A stretch of DNA of 64,000 nt. It comes from Lachnospiraceae bacterium (GTDB lineage: Bacteria; Bacillota; Clostridia; Lachnospirales; Lachnospiraceae). Where the stretch lies: assembly GCA_017408025.1 (NCBI GenBank), contig JAFQVJ010000068.1:107440-171439 (forward strand). The letters are read 5' to 3'. The position numbers were made by a program, and so were the translations under genes. Shown in pieces: positions 2,996 through 37,263 of the stretch; the first letter of the stretch is position 1; each line of letters begins with the position of its first letter. The notes under the pieces are model-generated. The model saw only the letters and a list, made by a program, of their open reading frames with translations. It was not told where the DNA came from and did not search any database.

Positions 2996-3517
2996 CTAGT
3001 CAGCTATATGACGTGTAATCCCAAGTCTATCAAGAATCTCACCCTGCATTCTCTCCATCTCCACACGTTCATCTTCTTCCATATGGTCATAACCAAACAA
3101 ATGAAGCATACTGTGTGCTATAAGAAAGCCCAATTCGCGTTTGCAGGAATGACAATACTCCTCGGCCTGAGCATATACCTTTTCTGAAGATACTACAATG
3201 TCACCAAGCATCAACTCACCTGTATCCGGCTCAAAATAATCATATGCGAAATCGTTTTCTGTATCCTCCAAAAAGCTAAAATCTCCAGGTGTCTCGTAAT
3301 CAATCAGTGGGAAAGACAATACATCTGTTGCCTTATCCATATCCCTCTGGTCTCTATTGATAGCTCTAATACGCTCATTGTCAGTTATAGTCACTTCTAC
3401 ATTCACTTCAAATGGACAATCAACGTAAGCAACCGCCTCTTCTATAACATCTCTTATAACCTTTTCATAGTCAAATTTAAATTCAGCACTATTTTCATTT
3501 TCAATAAATACCGTCAT
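2996..3517 (-). CDS. ybeY: Endoribonuclease YbeY (rRNA maturation factor)
   Basis: Zinc-binding motif HSMLHLFGYDH. Sits in the conserved phoH-pgpH-ybeY context. Confidence 0.92.
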   Translation of the reverse strand: MTVFIENENSAEFKFDYEKVIRDVIEEAVAYVDCPFEVNVEVTITDNERIRAINRDQRDMDKATDVLSFPLIDYETPGDFSFLEDTENDFAYDYFEPDTGELMLGDIVVSSEKVYAQAEEYCHSCKRELGFLIAHSMLHLFGYDHMEEDERVEMERMQGEILDRLGITRHIAD

Positions 3518-3519
3518 GT

Positions 3520-4707
3520 CTATTGTTGCTCCTTTATCTTTACCAATACCTCTTTAATCTTATCAAATTCCTCAATGGTAAGACCTGATTTATGTAATGC
3601 ACCAGAGCTAACTCGCTTATTCAATGCATTTTCAATGATAACCTTTTCACTCATGTCCTTTTTATCCATTGTACCTTTAAGGTATTCCACTGCTGATATA
3701 GCTGTATCGCACATCATTACAATGGCAGCCTCTCTGCTTCTTGGCAATCTGGACTTAACATTATGTTCTACCATAATTGCTTTTACACTCTTTGGTATAC
3801 CATATTTTTCTGCTAATGCAAGTCCTTCTTTTATATATTCATTGCCAGCAACTTTACCTAAATCATGATAGATTCCGCCTGCATATGCCAATTCTTCATC
3901 TGCGCCTATTCTTCTAGCTGCCAGTCTTGCAAGCTCCGCAACCTCAGTTGAATGATAATATAGGGATGTTGATTTATTCTTTATAAGTCGAATCGCAACA
4001 AAATTATCATCTGATATTTTCTTGAGATATATTGCAGGTGTCTTCATCTTAAGCACCCAATTTATAAGTATGCCCAGTACGTTAGCAACTACCATAGTCA
4101 ATATTCCTACAACCATCATAGATACTACAAATCCTACTGTTTCGTATTCCATGCCTATTCCATCACAATAATACTTAAATGCAAGTACACTTACAAGCTC
4201 TGTACTTACAAAAAACAATATTCCTGCCATATTTTTATATATTTCTTTGTGTTTCCAAATAGCAAAGCAGGCGGATGCACAAATAACAGGAATCACTATT
4301 CCAAAAATGTACATTGGATACTCATCAAAATTGACAAGCATAACACAGGAAACAGATATACTTGTTATAAAACCTGCTTTCAAATCATATACAGCCGCCA
4401 TAACCATCGGTATTAACATAAATGGCATATATTTAATTGGCAGCAGAACACATATTATGGTTCCAATCAGTACAAAATGGTACATAGACATCATTGCCAA
4501 CAGTTTCTTTTCAGTAACAACAAGATATATCAATGTTGCCATAAATGATATGGCTATAAATGTAGTTATGGCAACTCTCTCGTTATCCCAGATCTCCTCT
4601 TCATATATTTTTGAAATATAATAAGATAAAAAGATTGTCAGTGCTGTCATATATATAACAGCTCCCACCTTTAATCCAATATCCTTAAACGCCTTTTCTT
4701 CTTTCAT
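3520..4707 (-). CDS. 7TM-HD membrane phosphohydrolase (PgpH/YqfF-like, short form)
   Basis: About 7 TM helices followed by an HD domain (GGIYHDLGK). Occupies the yqfF position between phoH and ybeY. Only 395 aa, with no large N-terminal extracellular domain. Confidence 0.78.
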   Translation of the reverse strand: MKEEKAFKDIGLKVGAVIYMTALTIFLSYYISKIYEEEIWDNERVAITTFIAISFMATLIYLVVTEKKLLAMMSMYHFVLIGTIICVLLPIKYMPFMLIPMVMAAVYDLKAGFITSISVSCVMLVNFDEYPMYIFGIVIPVICASACFAIWKHKEIYKNMAGILFFVSTELVSVLAFKYYCDGIGMEYETVGFVVSMMVVGILTMVVANVLGILINWVLKMKTPAIYLKKISDDNFVAIRLIKNKSTSLYYHSTEVAELARLAARRIGADEELAYAGGIYHDLGKVAGNEYIKEGLALAEKYGIPKSVKAIMVEHNVKSRLPRSREAAIVMMCDTAISAVEYLKGTMDKKDMSEKVIIENALNKRVSSGALHKSGLTIEEFDKIKEVLVKIKEQQ

Positions 4708-5701: not shown

Positions 5702-6905
5702 ATGTACCTCCAAAACTACCTATATATTCAAGAACAGTTATCTGTCCAGATATTTTACAATACTCACCACCGTTCTCTATTTTAACACTATTATCAAGTA
5801 TTTGAATAGTATTTTTCTCTAATTTTTTTAAAATATACTCAATTTTCTCATTTGCCAATTTTTCCAATTCCTCATCCGTATATTTTTCTTGCTTAACTTC
5901 ATACTCCTTATATACCGTTTCACCAATATATACCGGTAAATAAAAATCATCTCCCAGCTTTATTCTTTCTCCCGTTGTAATGGTGTCGTACAGCTTATAT
6001 TTCTTCACTTCCCAAGGCAACACAAGCTCACATTGCCTAGAATCATATCCTATATTTTTCACTATATATTCATTTCCCGTATAACATTTATGTTCATACT
6101 CTCTTGCTATCGTTTCATTTATGTCATATATAACCTTTCCTACAATGTCCCCATCTGCCTTTACAAAGTGCTCAGCTATAACCGACAAATCGTCTCCATA
6201 CAAGGTATATTTTCCATCTATAAGCTTATCTCCCACCTTTACTAATTCTCCCTCCTTAACCAAGGGTGTTCCACTCCTTGTCACTATGGACATAACCGTT
6301 GCATTTCTCGTCGATATAATATCTCCTGGTTGCTCTTCATCATCTTCCAGCTCATTATCAAGCTTATAATTACTATTTTCTCTGACATGTATGCGCAGCA
6401 TTGTACCTGACACTTCCACAGATGCCCATGTAATATCAAAAAACTCATTCCTTATGGCCTTTTCTATTTCCTCTGGTTCTATACTAGATTGCTTAATGCC
6501 TTCCTTTATGCCAAGTCTCTCTACAAATTTCGTCAACTCATCATCTGTATGGGCTCTATTTCCCTCAAAGCTGATATTCCATACATATAATGACATGACA
6601 TAAACAATAACCCATCCGGTTAGCAATCCCATGAATAACATTTTTCTTTTTCTATTACAAAACAAAAAGAAAGGTAATCCGTACCTTTCTCTTATGCGTA
6701 TCTTCATTTTTGTTTTCTTTGTAATGCTTTTAAGCCTATAAACATCTTTTACACTTACATAAAAACTAGAGCTATCATCCACCTTTCGAATATCCCATAT
6801 ATGTATTCCTCTGGCATTTGCAAGATTAAAAAAACGTTCTGGAGTGTTTCCCTTCAATTCAACACAGACATATCCCTTAAATTTATTGATAAGCAATTCT
6901 ATCAT
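5694..6905 (-). CDS. yqfD: Sporulation protein YqfD
   Basis: About 400-aa protein with one central TM helix, directly downstream of yqfC as in Bacillus and Clostridium. ATG at 6905 is preceded by GGGAG. Confidence 0.82.
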   Translation of the reverse strand: MIELLINKFKGYVCVELKGNTPERFFNLANARGIHIWDIRKVDDSSSFYVSVKDVYRLKSITKKTKMKIRIRERYGLPFFLFCNRKRKMLFMGLLTGWVIVYVMSLYVWNISFEGNRAHTDDELTKFVERLGIKEGIKQSSIEPEEIEKAIRNEFFDITWASVEVSGTMLRIHVRENSNYKLDNELEDDEEQPGDIISTRNATVMSIVTRSGTPLVKEGELVKVGDKLIDGKYTLYGDDLSVIAEHFVKADGDIVGKVIYDINETIAREYEHKCYTGNEYIVKNIGYDSRQCELVLPWEVKKYKLYDTITTGERIKLGDDFYLPVYIGETVYKEYEVKQEKYTDEELEKLANEKIEYILKKLEKNTIQILDNSVKIENGGEYCKISGQITVLEYIGSFGGTYE

Positions 6906-7606: not shown

Positions 7607-10264
7607 TTATTTTCCAATTTGTTCTGAAAGAATTTCTTTTGCCTTAACAAGTGCCTCATCAATCTTCTCTGGAAGCTTTCCACCTGCCTGAGCCATATTC
7701 GGACGACCACCGCCGCCTCCACCAACGATTGTGGCAATGCCCTTAATGATATTTCCGGCATGAGCGCCATTGGCCATAGCACCATCTGTAGCCATAGCTA
7801 AAAGATTTACCTTACCATCCTGTGCTGATGCAATAACAATTACGCCATCACCAATCTGACCCTTAAGCTGATCACCAAGGTTTCTAAGACCATTCATGTC
7901 TACACCATCAACCTTAACAGCAAGAAGCTTTGTTCCGGCAACATCTTCTACCTGATTCATTACATCACCAAGAGCCTCATTTGCCATCTTGCTCTTAAGC
8001 TTTTCATTTTCTGAATGAAGTGTCTTAATTTCATCCTGCATTGACTCTATCTTCTTAACAAGACCTGCAATGTCTGTCTTAGCAGCCTTAGCGGCTTTCA
8101 TAAGTTCATCTTCCATATCAGCATAGTATTTAACTACGCCTGCTCCTGTAAGAGCCTCAATTCTTCTTACACCTGCCGCAATACCAGACTCTGAAACAAT
8201 CTTGAAGTTAGCAATATTTCCTGTATTCTTTACATGAGTACCACCACAGAGCTCAACAGAGAAATCTCCCATAGCAACTACACGAACCTTCTCACCATAC
8301 TTCTCACCGAAGAGTGCCATAGCTCCTGTCTTCTTAGTCTCATCAAGTGTCATTTCCTTTGTGACAACTTCTATTCCTGAAGCAATCTGATCATTGACAA
8401 TAGCTTCAACCTTTGCAATCTCCTCTGCTGTAAGGGCTGCAAAATGTGAGAAGTCAAAACGAAGTCTGTCTTTATTAACTAAAGAACCCGCCTGCTCTAC
8501 GTGTGAGCCCAGAACCATTCTAAGTGCCTTCTGTAAAAGATGGGTCGCACTGTGATTCTTACATGTATCTGCACGATTTGCGCTGTCCACCTTAAGAGTA
8601 ACAACGTCACCAACCTTTATCATTCCATTGACAATCTTACCTACATGACCAACCTTGCCACCGAGAAGCTTGATTGTATCAACTACCTCAAATGTGCTGT
8701 CGCCTACTGTAATAATACCCTTATCACCTTCCTGACCACCCATTGTAGCGTAGAATGTTGTCTCTTCCACAATGACTGTTCCCATGTCACCATCAGCAAG
8801 TGCCTCTACAACCTCTGTGTCAGTTGTAAGAGCAGTAACCTTTGATGTAGTCTCAAGGGAATCATAGCCTACAAACTTAGTAGTAAGTGAAGTATCCAAC
8901 TCTTCGTATACAGTGGCATCAGCGCCCATATAGTTAGTAGTCTTACGTCTGCTTCTGGCATTCTCTCTCTGCTCTGTCATACATGCATTAAATCCCGCTT
9001 CATCAAGAGTCATACCCTTTTCCTCAAGAATTTCTGCTGTAAGATCAAGAGGGAATCCATAAGTATCGTATAACTTAAATGAATCCTCGCCAGAAAGAAC
9101 TGTTTTTCCTTCTGCCTTCATCTTGTCCATCATCTCGCCAAGAATATTTAAGCCCTGATCAATGGTTTTATTAAATTTATTTTCTTCCTCTGTGAGAACC
9201 TTGAAGATAAACTCCTTCTTCTCATCAAGCTCTGGATATCCATCCTTACTCTCATTAATAACTATCTCTGAAAGTTTAGCAAGGAACTTGCCCTCTATAC
9301 CGAGAAGTCTGCCATGTCTTGCAGCTCTTCTGATAATTCTTCTAAGAACATATCCTCTTCCTTCATTCGATGGCATGACACCATCTGAGATAAGGAATGT
9401 AGATGAACGGATATGATCTGTGATAAGTCTGATAGAAATATCTTTCTTCTCATCTACCTGATATGTTGTACCTGCAAGCTTACAGATTTCATCTCTGATA
9501 GCCTTCATAGTATCAATATCAAATACAGAATCAACATCCTGAACTACTACTGCAAGTCTCTCAAGGCCCATTCCTGTATCAATATTCTTCTGTGCAAGCT
9601 CTGTATAATTGCCCTTACCATCGCCTTCGAACTGTGTAAATACGTTGTTCCATACTTCCATGAATCTGTCACACTCACAGCCCACTTTACAATCAGGCTT
9701 ACCACAACCATATTTGATACCTCTGTCGTAGTATATCTCTGTACATGGACCGCATGGACCTGCGCCGTGCTCCCAGAAGTTATCACACTTACCATTCTCA
9801 TCACGGTAGAATCTTGTAATCTTCTCAGCAGGAACACCAACTTCATCTGTCCAGATGTTAAATGCTTCCTCATCATCATAATAGATTGATGGGTAAAGCC
9901 TGTCCTCTTCAAGACCAATTGTCTTTGTAAGGAACTCCCATGACCATGCTATAGCTTCATGCTTGAAATAGTCTCCAAAAGAGAAATTGCCAAGCATCTC
10001 AAAAAATGTAAGGTGACGTGCTGTCTTACCTACATTTTCAATATCACCAGTTCTAACACACTTCTGGCATGTTGTAACTCTCTTTCTTGGTGGTATCTCC
10101 TGTCCAGTAAAATATGGCTTTAAAGGTGCCATACCTGCGTTGATAAGCAATAAACTCTTGTCGTTATGTGGTACAAGAGAAAAGCTGTTCATCTTCAAAT
10201 GATCCTTGCTCTCAAAAAATTCAAGGTACATCCTTCTAAGTTCGTTTACACCGTATTTATTCAT
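7607..10264 (-). CDS. alaS: Alanine--tRNA ligase
   Basis: Full-length AlaRS (MNKYGVNELRRMYLEFFESKDH...). ATG at 10264 is preceded by GGAGGAAGAC. Confidence 0.97.
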   Translation of the reverse strand: MNKYGVNELRRMYLEFFESKDHLKMNSFSLVPHNDKSLLLINAGMAPLKPYFTGQEIPPRKRVTTCQKCVRTGDIENVGKTARHLTFFEMLGNFSFGDYFKHEAIAWSWEFLTKTIGLEEDRLYPSIYYDDEEAFNIWTDEVGVPAEKITRFYRDENGKCDNFWEHGAGPCGPCTEIYYDRGIKYGCGKPDCKVGCECDRFMEVWNNVFTQFEGDGKGNYTELAQKNIDTGMGLERLAVVVQDVDSVFDIDTMKAIRDEICKLAGTTYQVDEKKDISIRLITDHIRSSTFLISDGVMPSNEGRGYVLRRIIRRAARHGRLLGIEGKFLAKLSEIVINESKDGYPELDEKKEFIFKVLTEEENKFNKTIDQGLNILGEMMDKMKAEGKTVLSGEDSFKLYDTYGFPLDLTAEILEEKGMTLDEAGFNACMTEQRENARSRRKTTNYMGADATVYEELDTSLTTKFVGYDSLETTSKVTALTTDTEVVEALADGDMGTVIVEETTFYATMGGQEGDKGIITVGDSTFEVVDTIKLLGGKVGHVGKIVNGMIKVGDVVTLKVDSANRADTCKNHSATHLLQKALRMVLGSHVEQAGSLVNKDRLRFDFSHFAALTAEEIAKVEAIVNDQIASGIEVVTKEMTLDETKKTGAMALFGEKYGEKVRVVAMGDFSVELCGGTHVKNTGNIANFKIVSESGIAAGVRRIEALTGAGVVKYYADMEDELMKAAKAAKTDIAGLVKKIESMQDEIKTLHSENEKLKSKMANEALGDVMNQVEDVAGTKLLAVKVDGVDMNGLRNLGDQLKGQIGDGVIVIASAQDGKVNLLAMATDGAMANGAHAGNIIKGIATIVGGGGGGRPNMAQAGGKLPEKIDEALVKAKEILSEQIGK

Positions 10265-30410: not shown

Positions 30411-31238
30411 TTATTTTTCAAATATCTCTTTTTTATTGATAATAAATACACCTACCACTAAGCTGACTATCAACGGTATCAGCATGTATACTATACCCTC
30501 TGTCGGTTTTATATCTCTTCCGCTGGACATGTAATCACGAACTAACATAGTATAACTAGCTAAAAAAACTTTGTTCAATATAAGTACTCCAGCCATATGA
30601 TATATCATAATTAGCAGGAAGCTTACTATCGGTCCCATAATCATAGACAGCATTACCTGTACACTGGATACCATAAGTGAATAAAGTAACGGCATAACAA
30701 ATACATAGAGTATCATATTCGTCTGAGATATTCCACCAATATAGGACTGGTCCATGTTCATAAACAAGTCTGAATGATATTTAAAGCTTATAGAACAGCC
30801 AGTAGCAACACAGTATATAAATATAATCATATACACTATTAGATAACACAATATAACTGTAACAAACATCCACAGGCACTTACTAAACCACCAGTTTTTC
30901 TTCTTTTCAACTCGTATAAATACCTGCTTACCATATCCATATATATCATCAAATGGATAATATCCAACCATAGTTGCAACAATAATCTGCATACCAATGA
31001 ATGTAATGGGAATATCTACCGTACCAATATCTAAATTTATCTCTTTTGCTCCCTTAAAAAAATATATCAAATGATCCATAAATGTTCTGGATTCATCATC
31101 TATATATATTTCTGAAAACGTACTGAAGAGCACACAGCATATGACAGCAAATATAGCAGCTATCACATACTTTTTGTAATTATATACAAATCCACATCTT
31201 AGGTCATATTTAATTATTCTATATAATCTATGCTTCAT
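30411..31238 (-). CDS. ABC-2-type transporter permease-like membrane protein (second permease)
   Basis: About 6 TM helices. Starts at the internal ATG 31238 (MKHRLYRIIKYDL...), 17 nt after the ATPase stop. The layout is typical of LanE/LanG-like permeases. Confidence 0.62.
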   Translation of the reverse strand: MKHRLYRIIKYDLRCGFVYNYKKYVIAAIFAVICCVLFSTFSEIYIDDESRTFMDHLIYFFKGAKEINLDIGTVDIPITFIGMQIIVATMVGYYPFDDIYGYGKQVFIRVEKKKNWWFSKCLWMFVTVILCYLIVYMIIFIYCVATGCSISFKYHSDLFMNMDQSYIGGISQTNMILYVFVMPLLYSLMVSSVQVMLSMIMGPIVSFLLIMIYHMAGVLILNKVFLASYTMLVRDYMSSGRDIKPTEGIVYMLIPLIVSLVVGVFIINKKEIFEK

Positions 31239-31254
31239 ATATAACACCTTTCCC

Positions 31255-31929
31255 TTACGCCTGTTGACTCTGCTCTTCTTTACGTTCATCCACCTTATAC
31301 TGTTTCTTTATTATACCTCCATCTATCTCAATTATCTCATCTGAAAGATAGAACAGCTCTTCTTTATCATGACATGCCAAAATGACAACCTTATCTTCTT
31401 TCTTTAGTTCATCAAGAATCTCTCTTATAATTTTTACACCCTCTTCATCTACAGCATTGACAGGCTCGTCCAGTATAATAATATCTGGTTTCTCCATTAT
31501 AGCACAGGCAATACCAAGCTTCTGTTTCATGCCAAGAGAATACTTTTTGTACTTTTTCTTATCTTCCGGATCAAGGCCTACACGCTCTATAACTGCCTTA
31601 ATCTCCTCATCACTGATAATATTCTTGATAGATGCTATCATTTTCAGATTGTCAAAGCCCGAGTATGATGGTAAAAACGCAGGATTTTCTATAAGCAAAC
31701 CAATACTTTCCGGAAACGACATATCCTTGCCTAAAATTTTACCACCTATAACCACTTCTCCCTCTGTAGCTGTTATCAAGCCTGATATAATGCGCATGAG
31801 CATAGTCTTTCCACTGCCATTTTTTCCCTTCAAACCATATATTTTCCCTGTATTCATGCCTACATTGATACCCGAAAGAACAGTATTACTTCCTATTTTT
31901 TTAGTTACATTTTTAACTTCTATGTACAT
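31255..31929 (-). CDS. ABC transporter ATP-binding protein
   Basis: Walker A GKNGSGKT, signature YSLGMKQK, Walker B IIILDEP. Start ATG at 31929 (MYIEVKNVTKK) follows GAGGAAAAAATA. Confidence 0.9.
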   Translation of the reverse strand: MYIEVKNVTKKIGSNTVLSGINVGMNTGKIYGLKGKNGSGKTMLMRIISGLITATEGEVVIGGKILGKDMSFPESIGLLIENPAFLPSYSGFDNLKMIASIKNIISDEEIKAVIERVGLDPEDKKKYKKYSLGMKQKLGIACAIMEKPDIIILDEPVNAVDEEGVKIIREILDELKKEDKVVILACHDKEELFYLSDEIIEIDGGIIKKQYKVDERKEEQSQQA

Positions 31930-31942
31930 TATTTTTTCCTCG

Positions 31943-32917
31943 CTATTTTTTGCCAAGCTTTTCCAGCTCTGTAAACGGCAGCAGATAAACTTCCGCAGCA
32001 TTAAAATTCTCTATATTTGTGTTGTAGCCTTCATCCATAACAAGATACATATCCTCCATTTCATCCTCAACAAAAATATATATTATCTCACCTATATATT
32101 CTTCCTTTGGTTCTAAAACAATACAGCTTGGATTCACGCCACCTGAATCACGCAAAAACTTATCTGCCATATTGGTGTAAATTGGTTCACCGCCGGTTGT
32201 ATAATCAGACTTATATACCATTGTTTTTCTGTATAACTTTCCATCATCAAGATATGTAAAATCCTCCATATAATGCATATTATAAAGCCATATCTCATTT
32301 TCTGTTGGCAAGAGGTTAGTGTATTTTACTGTTAATTTCACAGCTTTAAGTTTTTGATTTTCTATAATTGTCTCCTCACCATAATCAAGATCACCATATC
32401 TAACCTTTTTTTTCTGCGTAAATGTATTAAATGTACCATCCGTATTTATCAAACCTTTTTGTAATTCTTTACATAAATCATTGGTAAAGCCATGTTCAAA
32501 TGCTCCACTTATTCCATCCATCGTAACATTTAACCCACTAAAATATTTTGTCAAATCATCTATCTCCTCATATCCTAAAAACTCCACCTCAGCATATGAC
32601 ATGATATGTCTGAATTTATATTTATCAGTTATAAATTCCTTATTGATTTCCCTGCTGTCATATCTATCTTTATATTCACCTTTATGATATTCTGCATTAG
32701 CCTCAGCCTCCCTAATGGTTTCACTCATCTCATTCCATTCACTTTGTAATTCCTGCATTTCAGCTTGTTCCGCTTCATTCAATTTTGCCAATTCTTCCGA
32801 AGACAAAGTACTACTCTCTTCACTATCATTCTTTATAATCACCATAGCAACAATCATCACACATACTAACATTACCAATATAATTGTAAAAATTAAATTT
32901 TTCTTTTTATTATACAT
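31943..32917 (-). CDS. Hypothetical N-terminally anchored extracytoplasmic protein
   Basis: 324 aa: TM helix (LIFTIILVMLVCVMIVAMVII), an acidic coiled segment (EELAKLNEAEQAEMQELQSEW), then a ~230-aa globular region. No family recognised. Confidence 0.55.
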   Translation of the reverse strand: MYNKKKNLIFTIILVMLVCVMIVAMVIIKNDSEESSTLSSEELAKLNEAEQAEMQELQSEWNEMSETIREAEANAEYHKGEYKDRYDSREINKEFITDKYKFRHIMSYAEVEFLGYEEIDDLTKYFSGLNVTMDGISGAFEHGFTNDLCKELQKGLINTDGTFNTFTQKKKVRYGDLDYGEETIIENQKLKAVKLTVKYTNLLPTENEIWLYNMHYMEDFTYLDDGKLYRKTMVYKSDYTTGGEPIYTNMADKFLRDSGGVNPSCIVLEPKEEYIGEIIYIFVEDEMEDMYLVMDEGYNTNIENFNAAEVYLLPFTELEKLGKK

Positions 32918-32937
32918 TTTTACCCTCCTACAGCCTG

Positions 32938-33516
32938 CTACAACTCAAAGCAATACACCAATCCATTTTCACTATCATCAATATTTATCTGAATATCATC
33001 TACATCAAGTTCATTAAATGTTTTTTCGGAATAATAACATCCCCAAATACCAAACACAACAAGATATTCTCTTGGTTCACCAATATTTAAGTCATCAATT
33101 ATTATACTTCCATTATTCATATAATACATATAGTCTATCATTACTGGGCTGACATCATATTCATTATATGCGTACATCCTCGATGTATCAATTTGATAAT
33201 TTTCCTCCAATGCTGTAATTTCAAACTTAACTAGAACATATTTCTGCTGACCTAATTCTTCTTCATCTAGATCTAATTGTGTTCTATGTTCTTCAAGACC
33301 ATATACCTTAAGAATTTCATCAAAGTCATATATCTCTGCACTATTAAGTCTGTATCTTACGCCTTGATAATCTAACGCATCCCCATATCCATAATGTACA
33401 TCTTCTGGAATTCTATACTTTGCATATGTGTCATAAATCTTAACTCCCCATATAACAAGCAATATCACCAAAAGTAAAACTCCTATGATTTTCTTGATTT
33501 TTATATTTTTTCTCAT
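32938..33516 (-). CDS. Hypothetical N-terminally anchored extracytoplasmic protein
   Basis: 192 aa: TM helix (IIGVLLLVILLVIWGV) plus a beta-rich-looking domain. The start codon overlaps the upstream stop (TGATG). Confidence 0.55.
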   Translation of the reverse strand: MRKNIKIKKIIGVLLLVILLVIWGVKIYDTYAKYRIPEDVHYGYGDALDYQGVRYRLNSAEIYDFDEILKVYGLEEHRTQLDLDEEELGQQKYVLVKFEITALEENYQIDTSRMYAYNEYDVSPVMIDYMYYMNNGSIIIDDLNIGEPREYLVVFGIWGCYYSEKTFNELDVDDIQINIDDSENGLVYCFEL

Positions 33517-34340
33517 CAGTACACCTCCTTCTTGGAGCTAACAAACCCAAAATATGTACATACGAATAATATAATAATTTCAACAAAAAGAATACTATAG
33601 TTATATTGACTATTTGTTTGCGCATGAAGTGTAGCTGAAAAATCTATTTCACCTACACCTGTTACTCTGCTAAGAAATATCAGCATAAACGATAATACAA
33701 AAGGTGTGATAAACACACTAAAATAATTGTATATATGTTTAGAGACAAGTAACGCTAAAGTAGCAAGCAAGCCTGCAACCACAAATACCAGTAGTATTCT
33801 AAACAAAGTATATATCATAGGGTGTTCATAAAACAAATCTATGCAGAATGTTTCTTCCCCTATAATAGCCATATAATACCTATATGGCTTATGTAAAGGT
33901 AATATAGTTGCCAATGCAAAGAATTGTGCTAGCATAGGTACAACCACTACCATACCACCTGTTATAAAGGTTGCTATATATTTTGCTCTCATATATGTCT
34001 TCATAGACATTCGCGATACCATCTGCTTTACATAACCAATCTTCATCTCTGAATAAAATGAAGTTCCGTATGGAAGTGTAGCCAATATAGGCATAATAAA
34101 GAATATAATAACAATATGTTGATTAGGACTAAATAATATCCATTGGTCATATGGAGTTGCTTCACATACACCTTCAACACCTATATATCCAAACTCTTTG
34201 CCGATATCATCAATAAAAACACAACTATCATACACCTCCATAAAATGCATAATGCAAAATACAGCTACACATAGAAAGGATAAAAGAGTCCACTTGTTAA
34301 AAATTCCTCTTTTCAATTCATTTTTTAGCACTCTGTACAT
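33516..34340 (-). CDS. ABC-2-type transporter permease-like membrane protein (first permease)
   Basis: 274 aa with about 6 TM helices. The N-terminus MYRVLKNELKRGIFNKW is typical of ABC-2/LanE-like permeases. RBS GTGAGGT is present. Confidence 0.6.
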   Translation of the reverse strand: MYRVLKNELKRGIFNKWTLLSFLCVAVFCIMHFMEVYDSCVFIDDIGKEFGYIGVEGVCEATPYDQWILFSPNQHIVIIFFIMPILATLPYGTSFYSEMKIGYVKQMVSRMSMKTYMRAKYIATFITGGMVVVVPMLAQFFALATILPLHKPYRYYMAIIGEETFCIDLFYEHPMIYTLFRILLVFVVAGLLATLALLVSKHIYNYFSVFITPFVLSFMLIFLSRVTGVGEIDFSATLHAQTNSQYNYSILFVEIIILFVCTYFGFVSSKKEVY

Positions 34341-34402: not shown

Positions 34403-34494
34403 ACTATAGTTTCTCATTTGACCATTGCGAAGTTGTATTTTTTCACCTTTTAAAAAAATACAACTTCGCAATGGCGTATTAGCTTTTTTATATT
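34403..34494. promoter_or_regulatory. Divergent promoter pair sharing a perfect 22-bp inverted repeat (candidate operator)
   Basis: Arms are 34422-34443 (CCATTGCGAAGTTGTATTTTTT) and 34453-34474, with a 9-nt spacer. Each arm contains an outward-facing TTCGCA. On the minus strand this gives TTCGCA-N17-TATAGT; on the plus strand TTCGCA-N18-TATATT. Confidence 0.55.
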
Positions 34495-34532: not shown

Positions 34533-34673
34533 ATGAAAACACTTAAAAAATTTATAACACTTATCTCATGCGTATGTATTATTACAACCTCTATTAAGAT
34601 ACCTTTTTATTCAGAGTCGCCTAATTATTCAGTATACTCTGATGATCATAAAGAGTCCAACATAAAAAACTAA
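34533..34673 (+). CDS. Small exported pro-peptide candidate (46 aa)
   Basis: AAAGGAG RBS lies 7 nt upstream of the ATG. Sequence is MKTLKKFITLISCVCIITTSIKIPFYS-ESPNYSVYSDDHKESNIKN: a basic N-terminus, a hydrophobic core, then a hydrophilic tail. Its stop is 2 nt from the stop of the convergent regulator. Confidence 0.5.
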   Translation: MKTLKKFITLISCVCIITTSIKIPFYSESPNYSVYSDDHKESNIKN

Positions 34674-34675
34674 GT

Positions 34676-36472
34676 TTAAAAAGGCAAAATAATATTATGT
34701 TTTGTACACAAATTTCTAATTCTGCTAATTGAAGCTTTATTCTTATATAACTCGGCTATAACATAGGCATATTTAAGGTTTTCTTCACATTTCATTTTTT
34801 CTTCCATGCTGATGTTTTCTTTTTTTTCTAAAATATTCCACGCAATATCATATGATAAACTTCTAATATGCAACAACATATCTATTTTTACCGATGCACA
34901 AATACATATATGCAGTAAACTGTTAGCGTCGTTAACATTTCCCATCTCACCTAATATATCTCCATGCATATTATTAATATTCAAATACATAAATCCATTT
35001 TTGTGTATCATCTTTTCGTTGTATATATCTGCAAGTGCACTTAAATATTTTCTACATTCGTCGTAACTACTGTCGTATTTTTTACATATAATAATCTTAC
35101 GCAATAAGTTCCATTCGTTATAAAAAAGAATTACGCCTTCCTTTTTCAGTTTATTTATGTCTACAATGCTCTCATTCAATATTTCCTTTAACTTATTTAA
35201 ATATATTATAACATTATCTTGAACATTGTCATATTCAAACATAGTTGCACATATAAATTGTCTACTATTTACACTTTCTAGCTTATATTCAGCTTGAATT
35301 TCTTCTAAAATACTTGTAATTTTATAATGTTCCTCCCTATTGCATGAATCTCGTATCTCATTTATCTTTTCAAACGCCTTATAATCATATGTGTCAATTC
35401 TTGCCACATACTTATCTCCAGACAGTTTCACTCTCTGCAACAGCTTTTCCTTTTTTTCCTTTTGAAGACTTCTTCTATTATTCTCCATCTGTGAAACAGT
35501 GCTAATATCACATATACCAAAAGCTAATTCTGCTTGAGTTATCCCTAACATTTTTCTGCGCTGACTTATTATTTCATTGACATTATAAGCATCTATCTCC
35601 TCATACCTAGGAAAAAACTCTTCTACACTTCGAACTCCATACTGCATTTTAAACTCATTAAGCACAGCTATATACTTTTTTTCCACTGACATATCTTCGC
35701 CTTTACGCTCAAGACAAGTGATTATTCCCTCCTTAAGCTCTGTTAAAAACATAATAAAATCACCATTTAAAGTATATTCATATGTCTTTTCAGCTATTTC
35801 CAATGCCGCATCATACATTTCATGTCTCAGATAATATTTCATACTCCAATATCCCACATGTCGATAAAGCAATTCCCTTTCAGACCGGTCATACCTGGTA
35901 TCTTCCAATACATCCAATATATCCTTATATAATTTTATTGCTTGCTCTTCTTCTCCAGACAACTCCATATATCTTACGTATTGCTGTATGAGCAACATTT
36001 CCATACGACTTAAGTAATATTCATTAAGCTTATCTATATCAAATTTAGAACGAGTAATCTTTAAACCGGTCATTATCATATCCATACAAGAACTTATATT
36101 TTCACCTGTTCTATGCATAATTTCACATTCCACCAGACACAAATACTGTTCTTCTAACCTGCTGTGTCCGTTTTTTCTATACTCATCTATCTTACTTTTG
36201 GCCTCGTTATAATTCCCCTCATCTATAGTATCATATATCTCCCATCTCTTTTCCAACCTTTCATACTCATCAACATCTAACAGCATCTCAAAGCGCCCAC
36301 TATACTTTCCCAATCTTTGATATAGACTTTCAAATAGCAGCTTGTCCGCATCTCTTTTGTTGTTCTCAATATGAGTCAAATATCCTACAGAGCATAAGCC
36401 CTCTGACAAGGTTTTCCTACTTATTCCAAGACTTTCTCTTATATTCCATAGTAGTTTTCCTGTGTATAACAT
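34676..36472 (-). CDS. Tandem (duplicated) XRE-HTH / TPR-like transcriptional regulator, RRNPP-like
   Basis: Two HTH segments: LWNIRESLGISRKTLSEGLCSVGYLTHIENNKR near the N-terminus and QRRKMLGITQAELAFGICDISTVSQMENNRR around residue 310. Each is followed by about 230 aa of helical repeats. ATG at 36472 is preceded by AAAGGTGA. Confidence 0.78.
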   Translation of the reverse strand: MLYTGKLLWNIRESLGISRKTLSEGLCSVGYLTHIENNKRDADKLLFESLYQRLGKYSGRFEMLLDVDEYERLEKRWEIYDTIDEGNYNEAKSKIDEYRKNGHSRLEEQYLCLVECEIMHRTGENISSCMDMIMTGLKITRSKFDIDKLNEYYLSRMEMLLIQQYVRYMELSGEEEQAIKLYKDILDVLEDTRYDRSERELLYRHVGYWSMKYYLRHEMYDAALEIAEKTYEYTLNGDFIMFLTELKEGIITCLERKGEDMSVEKKYIAVLNEFKMQYGVRSVEEFFPRYEEIDAYNVNEIISQRRKMLGITQAELAFGICDISTVSQMENNRRSLQKEKKEKLLQRVKLSGDKYVARIDTYDYKAFEKINEIRDSCNREEHYKITSILEEIQAEYKLESVNSRQFICATMFEYDNVQDNVIIYLNKLKEILNESIVDINKLKKEGVILFYNEWNLLRKIIICKKYDSSYDECRKYLSALADIYNEKMIHKNGFMYLNINNMHGDILGEMGNVNDANSLLHICICASVKIDMLLHIRSLSYDIAWNILEKKENISMEEKMKCEENLKYAYVIAELYKNKASISRIRNLCTKHNIILPF

Positions 36473-36519
36473 ATAATCACCTTTTCTTCCAATTTTACAC
36501 ATTTTCAGTATTTTGTATA

Positions 36520-37263
36520 CTATCTATGTATAGCATAAGTTGTCACGCCATCCACCGTTGCCATATTAGCATAATCTTTAAATATCTTCCAAAAGCCCTG
36601 ACGGCTCATTTTTCTGCCAAAACGATTTAAAAATAATTCACCTGTATCCTCGCCCTTTATATAGCTGCCCCTTGCCCTTCCTATATATTTATCTAATGCG
36701 CATAATGTATCCTTGCTAAAGCGTATGGTTTTATCTTTTTTTCTGCCATGACATGTCACATATGCATATTGGAGGTTTACATCCTCGGTCTTTAATTCTA
36801 TGATTTCACTTACTTTTATACCTGTATCTATCATCAGCTTGAGCATAGCCCTGTCTCTAAGTTCTTTATTTCCATCTCCTGATATCTGATTCAGGATTTT
36901 ATTCATATTCTCATCAGATATTGCCTCTGTCTTCTTTCTGTCATTTTGAGGTATCTGGAGATTTTCTGTAGGTTCCCTCTTCACTGCACCGTTGTTAATC
37001 ATACATCTAAAAAACGTTTTAATAGCTGACGCATTTCTCGCAATAGTAGCTGCAGATTTTCCCAATCGTTCCATATATAAAATATATGAATTAATATTTG
37101 TTCCATTTATCTTACTGACATCTTCTATTCCCTGTTCCATAAAATACTTTGCCATAGCATTCAAATCACGCTTATATGACTGCAAAGTATTATCCGAAGC
37201 ATTTTTCACCTTTTTCATATACTCCATAAAAAAATCTATATTGACTACAATATTATTATCCAT
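36520..37263 (-). CDS. XerD-like tyrosine-recombinase homolog, short and active-site degenerate
   Basis: N-terminal SAM-like domain (TLQSYKRDLNAMAKYF), then RDRAMLKLMIDTGIKVSEI with Lys in place of the first catalytic Arg. The protein ends at ...TTYAIHR, before the His/Tyr box. Confidence 0.72.
   Translation of the reverse strand: MDNNIVVNIDFFMEYMKKVKNASDNTLQSYKRDLNAMAKYFMEQGIEDVSKINGTNINSYILYMERLGKSAATIARNASAIKTFFRCMINNGAVKREPTENLQIPQNDRKKTEAISDENMNKILNQISGDGNKELRDRAMLKLMIDTGIKVSEIIELKTEDVNLQYAYVTCHGRKKDKTIRFSKDTLCALDKYIGRARGSYIKGEDTGELFLNRFGRKMSRQGFWKIFKDYANMATVDGVTTYAIHR

Follow-up and report, generated by a model that had tools for sequence, protein, structure and literature searches.

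A probable single-chain pseudo-dimer of two RRNPP-type units, with a candidate pheromone gene, in an uncultured gut Lachnospiraceae bacterium

Gram-positive bacteria sense peptides in the cytoplasm mainly through regulators of the RRNPP family. These receptors combine a helix-turn-helix (HTH) domain, which is absent in Rap, with 5-9 TPR-like repeats forming a peptide pocket, work as homo-oligomers, and answer to the product of a 10-100-aa pro-peptide gene that is re-imported through Opp. To our knowledge, every characterised RRNPP receptor is a single HTH-TPR unit that needs oligomerisation. A regulator gene at positions 34676-36472 of a 64,000-nucleotide stretch of DNA from a Lachnospiraceae bacterium (GenBank assembly GCA_017408025.1, contig JAFQVJ010000068.1, positions 107,440 to 171,439; the whole stretch is called the window below) raises the question of whether two such units can be joined and put to different uses within one polypeptide. 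A first-pass annotation, made from the sequence alone, had read its product as a covalent tandem of two complete units, each consisting of an XRE-type HTH followed by helical repeats. Our analysis bears out that reading of the architecture and suggests that the protein is an RRNPP-type cytoplasmic peptide-pheromone receptor and transcription factor, in which an ancient internal duplication produced two HTH-plus-TPR-like units that work as a single-chain pseudo-dimer, an interpretation that we hold with somewhat better than even confidence.

The gene and the parts of its product are as follows.

34676..36472, minus strand: tandem regulator coding sequence, 598 aa plus stop; an alternative in-frame ATG at 36502 would give 608 aa
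36314..36463, minus strand: HTH1, XRE/Cro-type, residues 4-53 (HTH_3 at 11-43, HTH_19 at 5-55); four short helices in the AlphaFold2 model
35639..36274, minus strand: N-unit helical-repeat (TPR-like) domain, residues 67-278; 11 helices in the AlphaFold2 model; highly conserved family-wide
35582..35638, minus strand: inter-unit linker, residues 279-297, with an invariant FFPRY.E...YNVN motif
35432..35581, minus strand: HTH2, XRE/Cro-type, residues 298-347 (HTH_3 at 302-340, 25.5 bits on the C-half alone)
34700..35380, minus strand: C-unit helical-repeat domain, residues 365-591; 12 helices in the AlphaFold2 model; candidate pheromone sensor

The open reading frame (ORF) runs uninterrupted on the minus strand over 34676..36502, and the ORF list shows 0 internal stops or frameshifts between the halves, so that a split into two genes, which the first-pass annotation had named as a possible refutation, was not found. 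The start Met at 36472 (Met11 of the longer ORF) is favoured because the family alignment begins at MLYSGK and the NCBI record of the identical protein (P0001, 'MAG: helix-turn-helix transcriptional regulator [Lachnospiraceae bacterium]', MAG standing for metagenome-assembled genome) agrees; a Shine-Dalgarno-like word, AAGGTG, lies ~7 nt upstream of this Met. Pfam HTH_3 matches the regulator in two stretches, residues 11-43 and 302-340 (whole-protein E 1.6e-10, 41.3 bits), which include the peptides GISRKTLSEG... at residue 16 and GITQAELAFG... at residue 310. The second is encoded at ~35545, where an HTH had been placed from the sequence (around residue 310, 35500-35580). When single halves were searched against the HTH_3 cut-off of 23 bits, the C-half scored 25.5 bits and the N-half 18.9 bits, and the second HTH thus passes a profile test on its own.

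A full-length AlphaFold2 model built with the family alignment as input forms one confident body (predicted local distance difference test, pLDDT, 91.3; predicted TM-score, pTM, 0.91). In this model a four-helix HTH bundle appears at residues 4-53 and again at 298-347, followed by 11 and 12 helices, respectively, consistent with the expectation that helical repeats follow each HTH and that the C-terminal half is a repeat domain. Strands at the homologous positions 62-65 and 355-356 are present in the full-length model only, and not when the N-half is modelled alone, which hints at a contact across the two units. In the region of the linker, F287, Y290, E292 and N299 are invariant in the family alignment and P288 is conserved at 90% or more. 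The linker is mostly non-helical in the model, with one 3-residue helix at ~283-285, yet has a pLDDT of ~92, and for this reason it is probably docked at a specific place; it might even act as a built-in pseudo-ligand in the groove of the N-unit.

The relationship between the halves extends well beyond their HTHs. BLASTP of the N-half against the C-half returns 32% identity over 73 aa (E 2e-9), covering only the HTH and the next ~35 residues. Profile-profile comparison with hhalign, using a 13-sequence alignment for each half, joins residues 7-280 of the N-half to residues 10-304 of the C-half over 269 columns (probability 98.4%, E 5.1e-15, ~18% identity), and the repeat domains are therefore homologous as well. 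Among 180 relatives, the N-unit profile matches the C-unit in 162 and the C-unit profile matches the N-unit in 170. The suggestion that the halves are products of an old duplication that have diverged strongly is thus upheld, with homology from end to end at low identity.

Each half is a whole RRNPP-type monomer, because the N-half is matched to the full PlcR chain by its model and the C-half to Rgg, Lmo0325 and PlcR by its profile. Modelled alone (pLDDT 90.4), the N-half finds PlcR 2qfc_A as its best solved structure (E 6.3e-6, 285 columns against a 284-residue chain), followed by Rgg2, ComR, PrgX, Lmo0325 and NprR; PlcR 2qfc_A and 3u3w_A both match at E ~1e-5 with the whole chain aligned. 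Sequence identity to PlcR is only 13-17%. The profile of the C-half finds the Rgg structures 5w4m, 5w4n and 4yv6 by sequence (E ~1e-4), as well as Lmo0325 and PlcR (residues 11-253 against 10-242). Within the family, HTH_3 is found in 12 of 13 C-halves and TPR_14 in 7 of 13 N-halves, distant members have two HTH_3 stretches each, and two distant relatives, P0113 and P0180, have C-units that pass the gathering cut-off of RNPP_C (PF18768). Several searches returned less: NCBIfam gave just two HTH matches to the full regulator, both sub-threshold; phmmer of the full regulator against PDB sequences gave a small HTH protein as the sole match; the N-half profile had no significant match among PDB sequences; viral structures, searched by fold with the full model, yielded generic TPR proteins alone and no double architecture; and the double HTH-plus-repeat architecture was absent from the top PDB matches.

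The fused form is not peculiar to this genome. Both units are present in 163 of the 180 relatives at a length of at least 560 aa, and 12 short relatives resemble fragments. A word-indexed search returned 34 clusters of 589-630 aa with identity down to 36%, the exception in length being the 456-aa partial P0007, and an exhaustive profile search returned 3,501 representative proteins at E<=1e-3, 476 of them at E<=1e-30. Of the 150 best profile matches, almost all are 590-670 aa long and align end to end. Relatives come mostly from metagenome assemblies, and a scan of species-representative genomes found three loci only, all in uncultured Lachnospiraceae MAGs. A sequencing or assembly artefact was considered as the origin of the fusion and ruled out, as the two-unit architecture is conserved among relatives. 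Conservation of the fused form across a very large family also supports an old date for the duplication.

If the regulator is a peptide receptor, a gene for its peptide would be expected nearby, and the first-pass annotation had asked for linkage to small ORFs to be surveyed. One such ORF converges on the regulator.

34533..34673, plus strand: 46-aa pro-peptide gene, MKTLKKFITLISCVCIITTSIKIPFYSESPNYSVYSDDHKESNIKN, convergent on the regulator, with GGAG 9 nt before the ATG

It lies on the opposite strand and ends two bases past the regulator stop codon. Judged by eye from the sequence, the N-terminus of the product resembles a signal peptide, in which 15 hydrophobic residues come after a Lys-rich n-region. 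In the related loci L039, L001, L007, L002/3, L004, L040 and L041, whose regulators are 36-79% identical to that of the window, homologous ORFs of 45-51 aa occupy the same convergent position; in all, such a small ORF is present in 8 loci from at least 7 lineages. These pro-peptides share the Lys-rich start, the hydrophobic segment, a conserved (V/I)(S/T/L)(V/I)Y(S/D/N)(D/E/N) core and a variable tail that is polar and acidic. A 28-aa ORF in L006, MKNNMKKNICLPCICIRDFKFYKLYVLQ, is a possible exception to the 45-51-aa Sec-like peptides. In locus L042, a further pro-peptide homologue (...SSDITVYDNNIKQPDVKG) lies at ~3690-3830 on the minus strand, with no in-frame ATG after a GAGGAG word that resembles a ribosome-binding site.

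The closest link between the small ORF and the regulator comes from a block of DNA that spans the junction of the two genes.

34590..35376, no strand: hypervariable 'pherotype' block, comprising the C-unit repeat domain and the 3' (mature) part of the pro-peptide gene

Locus L039 has the same synteny as the window (NUDIX, SpoIIM, a 247-aa XerD-like gene, regulator, peptide and operon), and the two are 97-100% identical per 90-nt bin over ~7.7 kb, with the block alone falling to 51-76%. Within the 2.3-kb regulator region, 321 of 335 mismatch columns lie inside the block. At the protein level, identity is 98.9% over regulator residues 1-360 (N-unit, linker and HTH2) and drops to 49.6% over residues 361-598; by domain, it is 98.6% in the N-unit repeat, 100% in HTH2 and 49.6% in the C-unit repeat domain. 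The signal segment of the peptide is identical, and divergence begins at residue 17-20. The pattern recurs between L001 and L007, where identity is 100% before the C-unit, 60-80% over the C-unit and the last ~9 peptide codons, and 98-100% thereafter, so that in two independent lineages the edges of the block fall at the end of the peptide signal segment or conserved core and at the boundary of the regulator repeat domain. Proteins P0008, P0011, P0012 and P0013 likewise have N-units and HTH2 that are 99-100% identical and C-unit repeats that are 42-67% identical.

Across the family alignment, the C-unit repeat is less conserved than the N-unit in 324 of 325 pairwise comparisons, the mean column identity of the N-unit being ~60%, and co-variation with the adjacent pro-peptide is confined to the C-unit repeat domain. 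Replacement of a receptor sensor together with its mature signal is known from the pherotype cassettes of PlcR/PapR, ComQXP and Agr. As far as aligned sequences can tell, the block is the signature of such cassettes, in which sensor and mature signal are swapped together, and this argues that the small ORF is a real gene functionally coupled to the regulator, that its product is sensed by the C-unit, and that peptide specificity is not set by the N-unit. The idea that the two units are non-equivalent is accordingly strongly supported and made sharper.

Two further observations were made in these loci. A second small divergent patch (~68% identity) interrupts otherwise identical DNA between L001 (8182-8323) and L007, and surrounds a terminator-like inverted repeat, AAGCCTGGCAGAAT/ATTCTGTCAGGCTT plus a T-run, upstream of an ABC (ATP-binding cassette) exporter gene. 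Loci L005 and L007 carry paralogous tandem regulators of one genome, MAG fecal_MAG_211: L007 has a pro-peptide and a paired box of the kind described below, and in L005 the box is single, no pro-peptide can be recognised, and a ribosomal-protein-S6-like gene lies downstream.

How the regulator might read DNA is suggested by the interval between the pro-peptide gene and a divergently transcribed operon, which contains the following elements.

34422..34474, no strand: candidate operator, a perfect palindrome with 22-nt arms (34422-34443 and 34453-34474) that are 100% complementary, and a 9-nt spacer
34465..34494, plus strand: promoter-like site of the pro-peptide gene, TTCGCA-18-TATATT, with its -35 inside the right box (consensus pattern match only)
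34403..34431, minus strand: promoter-like site of the divergent operon, TTCGCA-17-TATAGT, with its -35 inside the left box (consensus pattern match only)

The two promoter-like sites point outward from the palindrome, and the outer 14 nt of each arm form a box, CCATTGCGAAGTTG. Its asymmetric form CCATnGCrAAnnTG (pattern CCATNGCRAANNTG) occurs 2 times in the window against 0.07 expected, and both occurrences are the palindrome arms. In the related loci that were fetched, the box was found just downstream of the regulator gene and nowhere else. A consensus from 15 instances, AA.a.aCCATgGCAAA..TG.AaA, is asymmetric and has two unlike halves, a CCATGGCAAA half and a TG.AAA half. The box occurs as an inverted pair with 14 nt between the 14-nt cores in L001/L007, 13 in L002, 14 in L006 and 25 in the window; L040, L005 and the L011-L022/L037 group have one copy each. 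Aligned on their 14-nt cores, the pairs have their arms oriented alike at every locus and differ in the length of the spacer alone. The copy nearest the pro-peptide gene lies roughly 55-65 nt upstream of the start codon, as counted manually from the sequences. Because the box occurs singly and the spacing of pairs varies, one box looks like a complete site.

Two other explanations of the palindrome were tried and rejected. An intrinsic terminator does not fit, given an AT-rich stem, the absence of terminator-like sites from the scan and the recurrence of the box in single copies elsewhere; a site for the neighbouring XerD-like recombinase does not fit either, given that the box follows the regulator in loci without xerD nearby. 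In L042, the pro-peptide homologue mentioned above neighbours a palindrome at 3886-3970 with arms of ~35 nt and a variant box, ACATGACATAGTTG. A separate word, TGTCAAAGCGC(T/A)TTGA, lies in the leader between the box/-10 and the first target gene in L002 (~8060-8076), L009 (~5792-5808), L010 (~5784-5800) and L011 (~3109-3125); it is conserved there though the regulators of these loci are 38-47% identical to that of the window, and it is absent from the window.

From the genes, their homologies, the conserved box and the sensor-peptide co-variation we infer a circuit whose biochemical steps would run as follows. The 46-aa product would be a pre-pro-peptide that leaves the cell by means of a Sec-type signal and is then cut down to a short pheromone derived from the variable C-terminal part, and this pheromone would be re-imported and bind the groove of the C-unit repeat domain. 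The liganded regulator would then bind the asymmetric box CCATnGCrAAnnTG, where its two non-identical HTHs would probably touch the two unlike halves of a single box, one chain thus taking the place of the PlcR, Rgg or ComR homodimer. Binding would switch on the pheromone gene, in a positive feedback, together with the ABC-transporter operon; both promoters are proposed as targets because each box of the palindrome overlaps the -35 of one of the two divergent promoters. Since it is conserved and does not track pheromone specificity, the N-unit would act as a degenerate 'second subunit', a fixed partner in structure and DNA binding.

The first-pass annotation had foreseen a single chain on a two-arm operator, and binding of one chain as a monomer to a two-part operator would fit a 14-15-bp asymmetric box that occurs singly or in variably spaced pairs; the simplest interpretation would be one chain touching one box through its two unlike HTHs. 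We advance, tentatively and as a possibility that falls short of an even chance, a pseudo-heterodimeric single-chain receptor that would bind as a monomer to an asymmetric operator through two diverged HTHs and in which the C-unit alone would read the fast-evolving pheromone, the N-unit being a frozen partner, reading a second conserved signal, or holding the FFPRY linker as a pseudo-ligand. A different arrangement, which we consider rather unlikely, is a dimer of tandem chains with four HTHs on an inverted pair of boxes, one chain per arm or cross-braced, in which fusion would add valency or cooperativity and would not replace dimerisation. Known RRNPP proteins do oligomerise, PlcR and Rgg as dimers and PrgX as tetramers, the window operator is a perfect palindrome of 22-nt arms, and inverted pairs are also seen in L002, L006, L001/L007 and L042; however, spacers of 13, 14, 14 and 25 nt would not easily suit one rigid complex, the box stands alone in L040, L005 and the L011-L022/L037 group, and each arm in the window sits on its own promoter, so that two independent sites can account for the palindrome. 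It is also conceivable, though improbable, that the regulator integrates two inputs, with the C-unit binding the variable pheromone and the N-unit a second conserved signal, either another peptide or a product of the target cluster; its peptide could perhaps be the conserved ...VSVYSD(D/E) core of the pro-peptide. The N-unit retains the full PlcR-like repeat fold under strong constraint, the pro-peptide has a conserved internal core besides its variable tail, and one N-half of the family matches RNPP_C (E 4.7e-5), but conservation of the N-unit is equally explained by packing on the C-unit, the linker or RNA polymerase, and there is no conserved second peptide gene nearby.

Several observations weigh against the pheromone receptor proposed here, in whole or in part. 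The window regulator falls below every Pfam TPR and RNPP_C cut-off; the convergent pro-peptide is not recognisable in L005, L006 and the L009-L022 group; the block is one contiguous stretch of DNA, and co-variation of sensor and peptide could partly reflect physical linkage; and the perfect two-fold palindrome of the window operator would be no less suitable for a symmetric dimer of chains. That some family members are without a convergent ORF would also agree with a regulator unrelated to quorum sensing, an XRE/TPR protein answering to an intracellular cue beside an unrelated secreted or membrane neighbour of a bacteriocin-like or lipoprotein-like kind, and transporter and RiPP-like target operons (RiPP, ribosomally synthesised and post-translationally modified peptide) would suit bacteriocin biology too. 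We give this account very little credence, for the small ORF keeps its position and orientation in 7 lineages although their regulators are only 36-49% identical to that of the window, the block stops at the end of the peptide signal segment or core and at the regulator repeat-domain boundary in two independent lineages, and the box always lies at a similar distance upstream of the ORF start.

Compared with characterised systems, the proposed receptor shares most defining features of the RRNPP family and departs from it in its length and its two units. An XRE-type HTH is found twice; a TPR-like superhelical fold is predicted for both units; an adjacent small gene encodes a pro-peptide whose secretion is judged from its sequence; and receptor-peptide co-evolution is seen as the hypervariable block in two lineages. 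The known form is a single HTH-TPR unit of 250-500 aa, and the window protein has two units in one chain of 598 aa, and it is this feature that sets it apart from ordinary members as a variant. RRNPP receptors that are tandem, fused, pseudo-dimeric or equipped with two HTHs did not turn up in targeted searches of the literature, which is not proof of absence, and the fused two-unit family appears to be a large, undescribed variant of RRNPP quorum-sensing receptors, unexpected in so well studied a family. A standard RRNPP detector retains only proteins of 250-500 aa (PMC10075063).

The PlcR/PapR system of the Bacillus cereus group resembles the window in having an XRE HTH, ~5 TPR-like repeats with a capping helix, an adjacent pro-peptide gene with a Sec-type signal and a variable C-terminal end, and a box close to the -35; PlcR is also the best structural match of the N-unit. 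In this pair, receptor and peptide are known to co-vary in the manner of pherotypes. Unlike the window protein, PlcR has ~285 aa and one HTH and binds as a homodimer to the palindrome TATGNAN4TNCATA, whereas the box in the window is the asymmetric CCATnGCrAAnnTG and not a PlcR box, the chain joins two diverged units, and the peptide gene runs towards the receptor gene and adjoins its 3' end. The Rgg/SHP and ComR/ComS systems are similar in that the C-unit profile finds Rgg2/Rgg3 structures by sequence and in that the signal gene and target operon diverge around a shared operator. They differ in that Rgg and ComR are single units of ~285-300 aa that form dimers, in that SHP peptides have ~20-35 aa and no Sec signal and are exported by PptAB, whereas the window-family peptides have 45-51 aa with a classical n- and h-region, and in taxon, the window family being found in uncultured gut Lachnospiraceae and Rgg/SHP in streptococci. 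A functional analogy only, with MarA/SoxS/Rob of the AraC family, is offered by monomers whose two non-identical HTHs bind a ~20-bp asymmetric site; these proteins have an unrelated fold and ancestry, no repeat sensor domain and no peptide signal. Streptococcal Rgg/SHP systems control RaS-RiPP clusters (PMC8092268, PMC9389541), and in the window family the regulators of L002, L001 and L006 similarly stand beside RiPP-like genes (precursor peptide, radical-SAM/SPASM enzyme, ABC exporter).

What the circuit might control is indicated by the genes beyond the box, which in the window, together with the gene upstream of the regulator, are the following.

30411..34340, minus strand: probable target operon, divergent from the pro-peptide gene; the same operon follows the regulator in L039
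33516..34340, 32938..33516 and 31943..32917, minus strand: ORFs for three membrane or uncharacterised proteins of the operon
31255..32001, minus strand: ABC ATPase of the operon (ABC_tran, E 1e-28)
30411..31289, minus strand: ORF for a 292-aa protein of the operon
36520..37263, minus strand: XerD-like tyrosine recombinase gene, 247 aa, directly upstream of the regulator

The nearest NCBIfam model for the operon ABC ATPase is the lantibiotic-protection ABC ATPase TIGR03740, at 167.7 bits, below the 309.75-bit cut-off. In other loci, the DNA downstream of the box encodes a Cys-rich 50-aa precursor (...GFCGLAGKSCGTSSGESSERD), a 583-aa radical-SAM/SPASM enzyme and an ABC exporter (L002, 8101-11779), an ABC exporter and a radical-SAM enzyme (L001, 8324-11523), or a 37-aa Cys-rich ORF, MYERPEFVFFDEEEIAKIRNCFCAFMAHCGPPFSQCRNR (L006, ~6116-6230), and the targets in L009-L011 include an ABC exporter. 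Judged by their predicted products, the clusters beside the box in L002, L006 and L001 are RiPP-like.

The XerD-like protein matches positions 3-230 of the 290 positions of the XerD model (183.7 bits against a cut-off of 329.6 bits), ends in ...TTYAIHR*, and is without the C-terminal segment that bears the catalytic Tyr; no motif matching the missing C-terminus was found elsewhere in the window. As the L039 orthologue likewise has 247 aa, the gene looks like a fixed truncation or a pseudo-recombinase.

If the proposal is correct, a large family of duplicated receptors would be a natural experiment in which the 'subunits' of a receptor evolve separately, one hypervariable together with its pheromone and the other nearly frozen, and it would explain how the RRNPP fold can read an asymmetric operator. 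The window and L039, as well as L001 and L007, are ready pherotype pairs for a comparison of specificity. It would also expose a blind spot of surveys that discard receptors of more than 500 aa (PMC10075063), and would suggest that peptide signals govern radical-SAM RiPP and ABC-transporter clusters in uncultured Lachnospiraceae of the human gut. Should the more specific pseudo-heterodimeric arrangement hold, it would define a large family overlooked by length-filtered surveys in which, unlike in any characterised RRNPP system, the symmetry of DNA binding would be uncoupled from the stoichiometry of the ligand.

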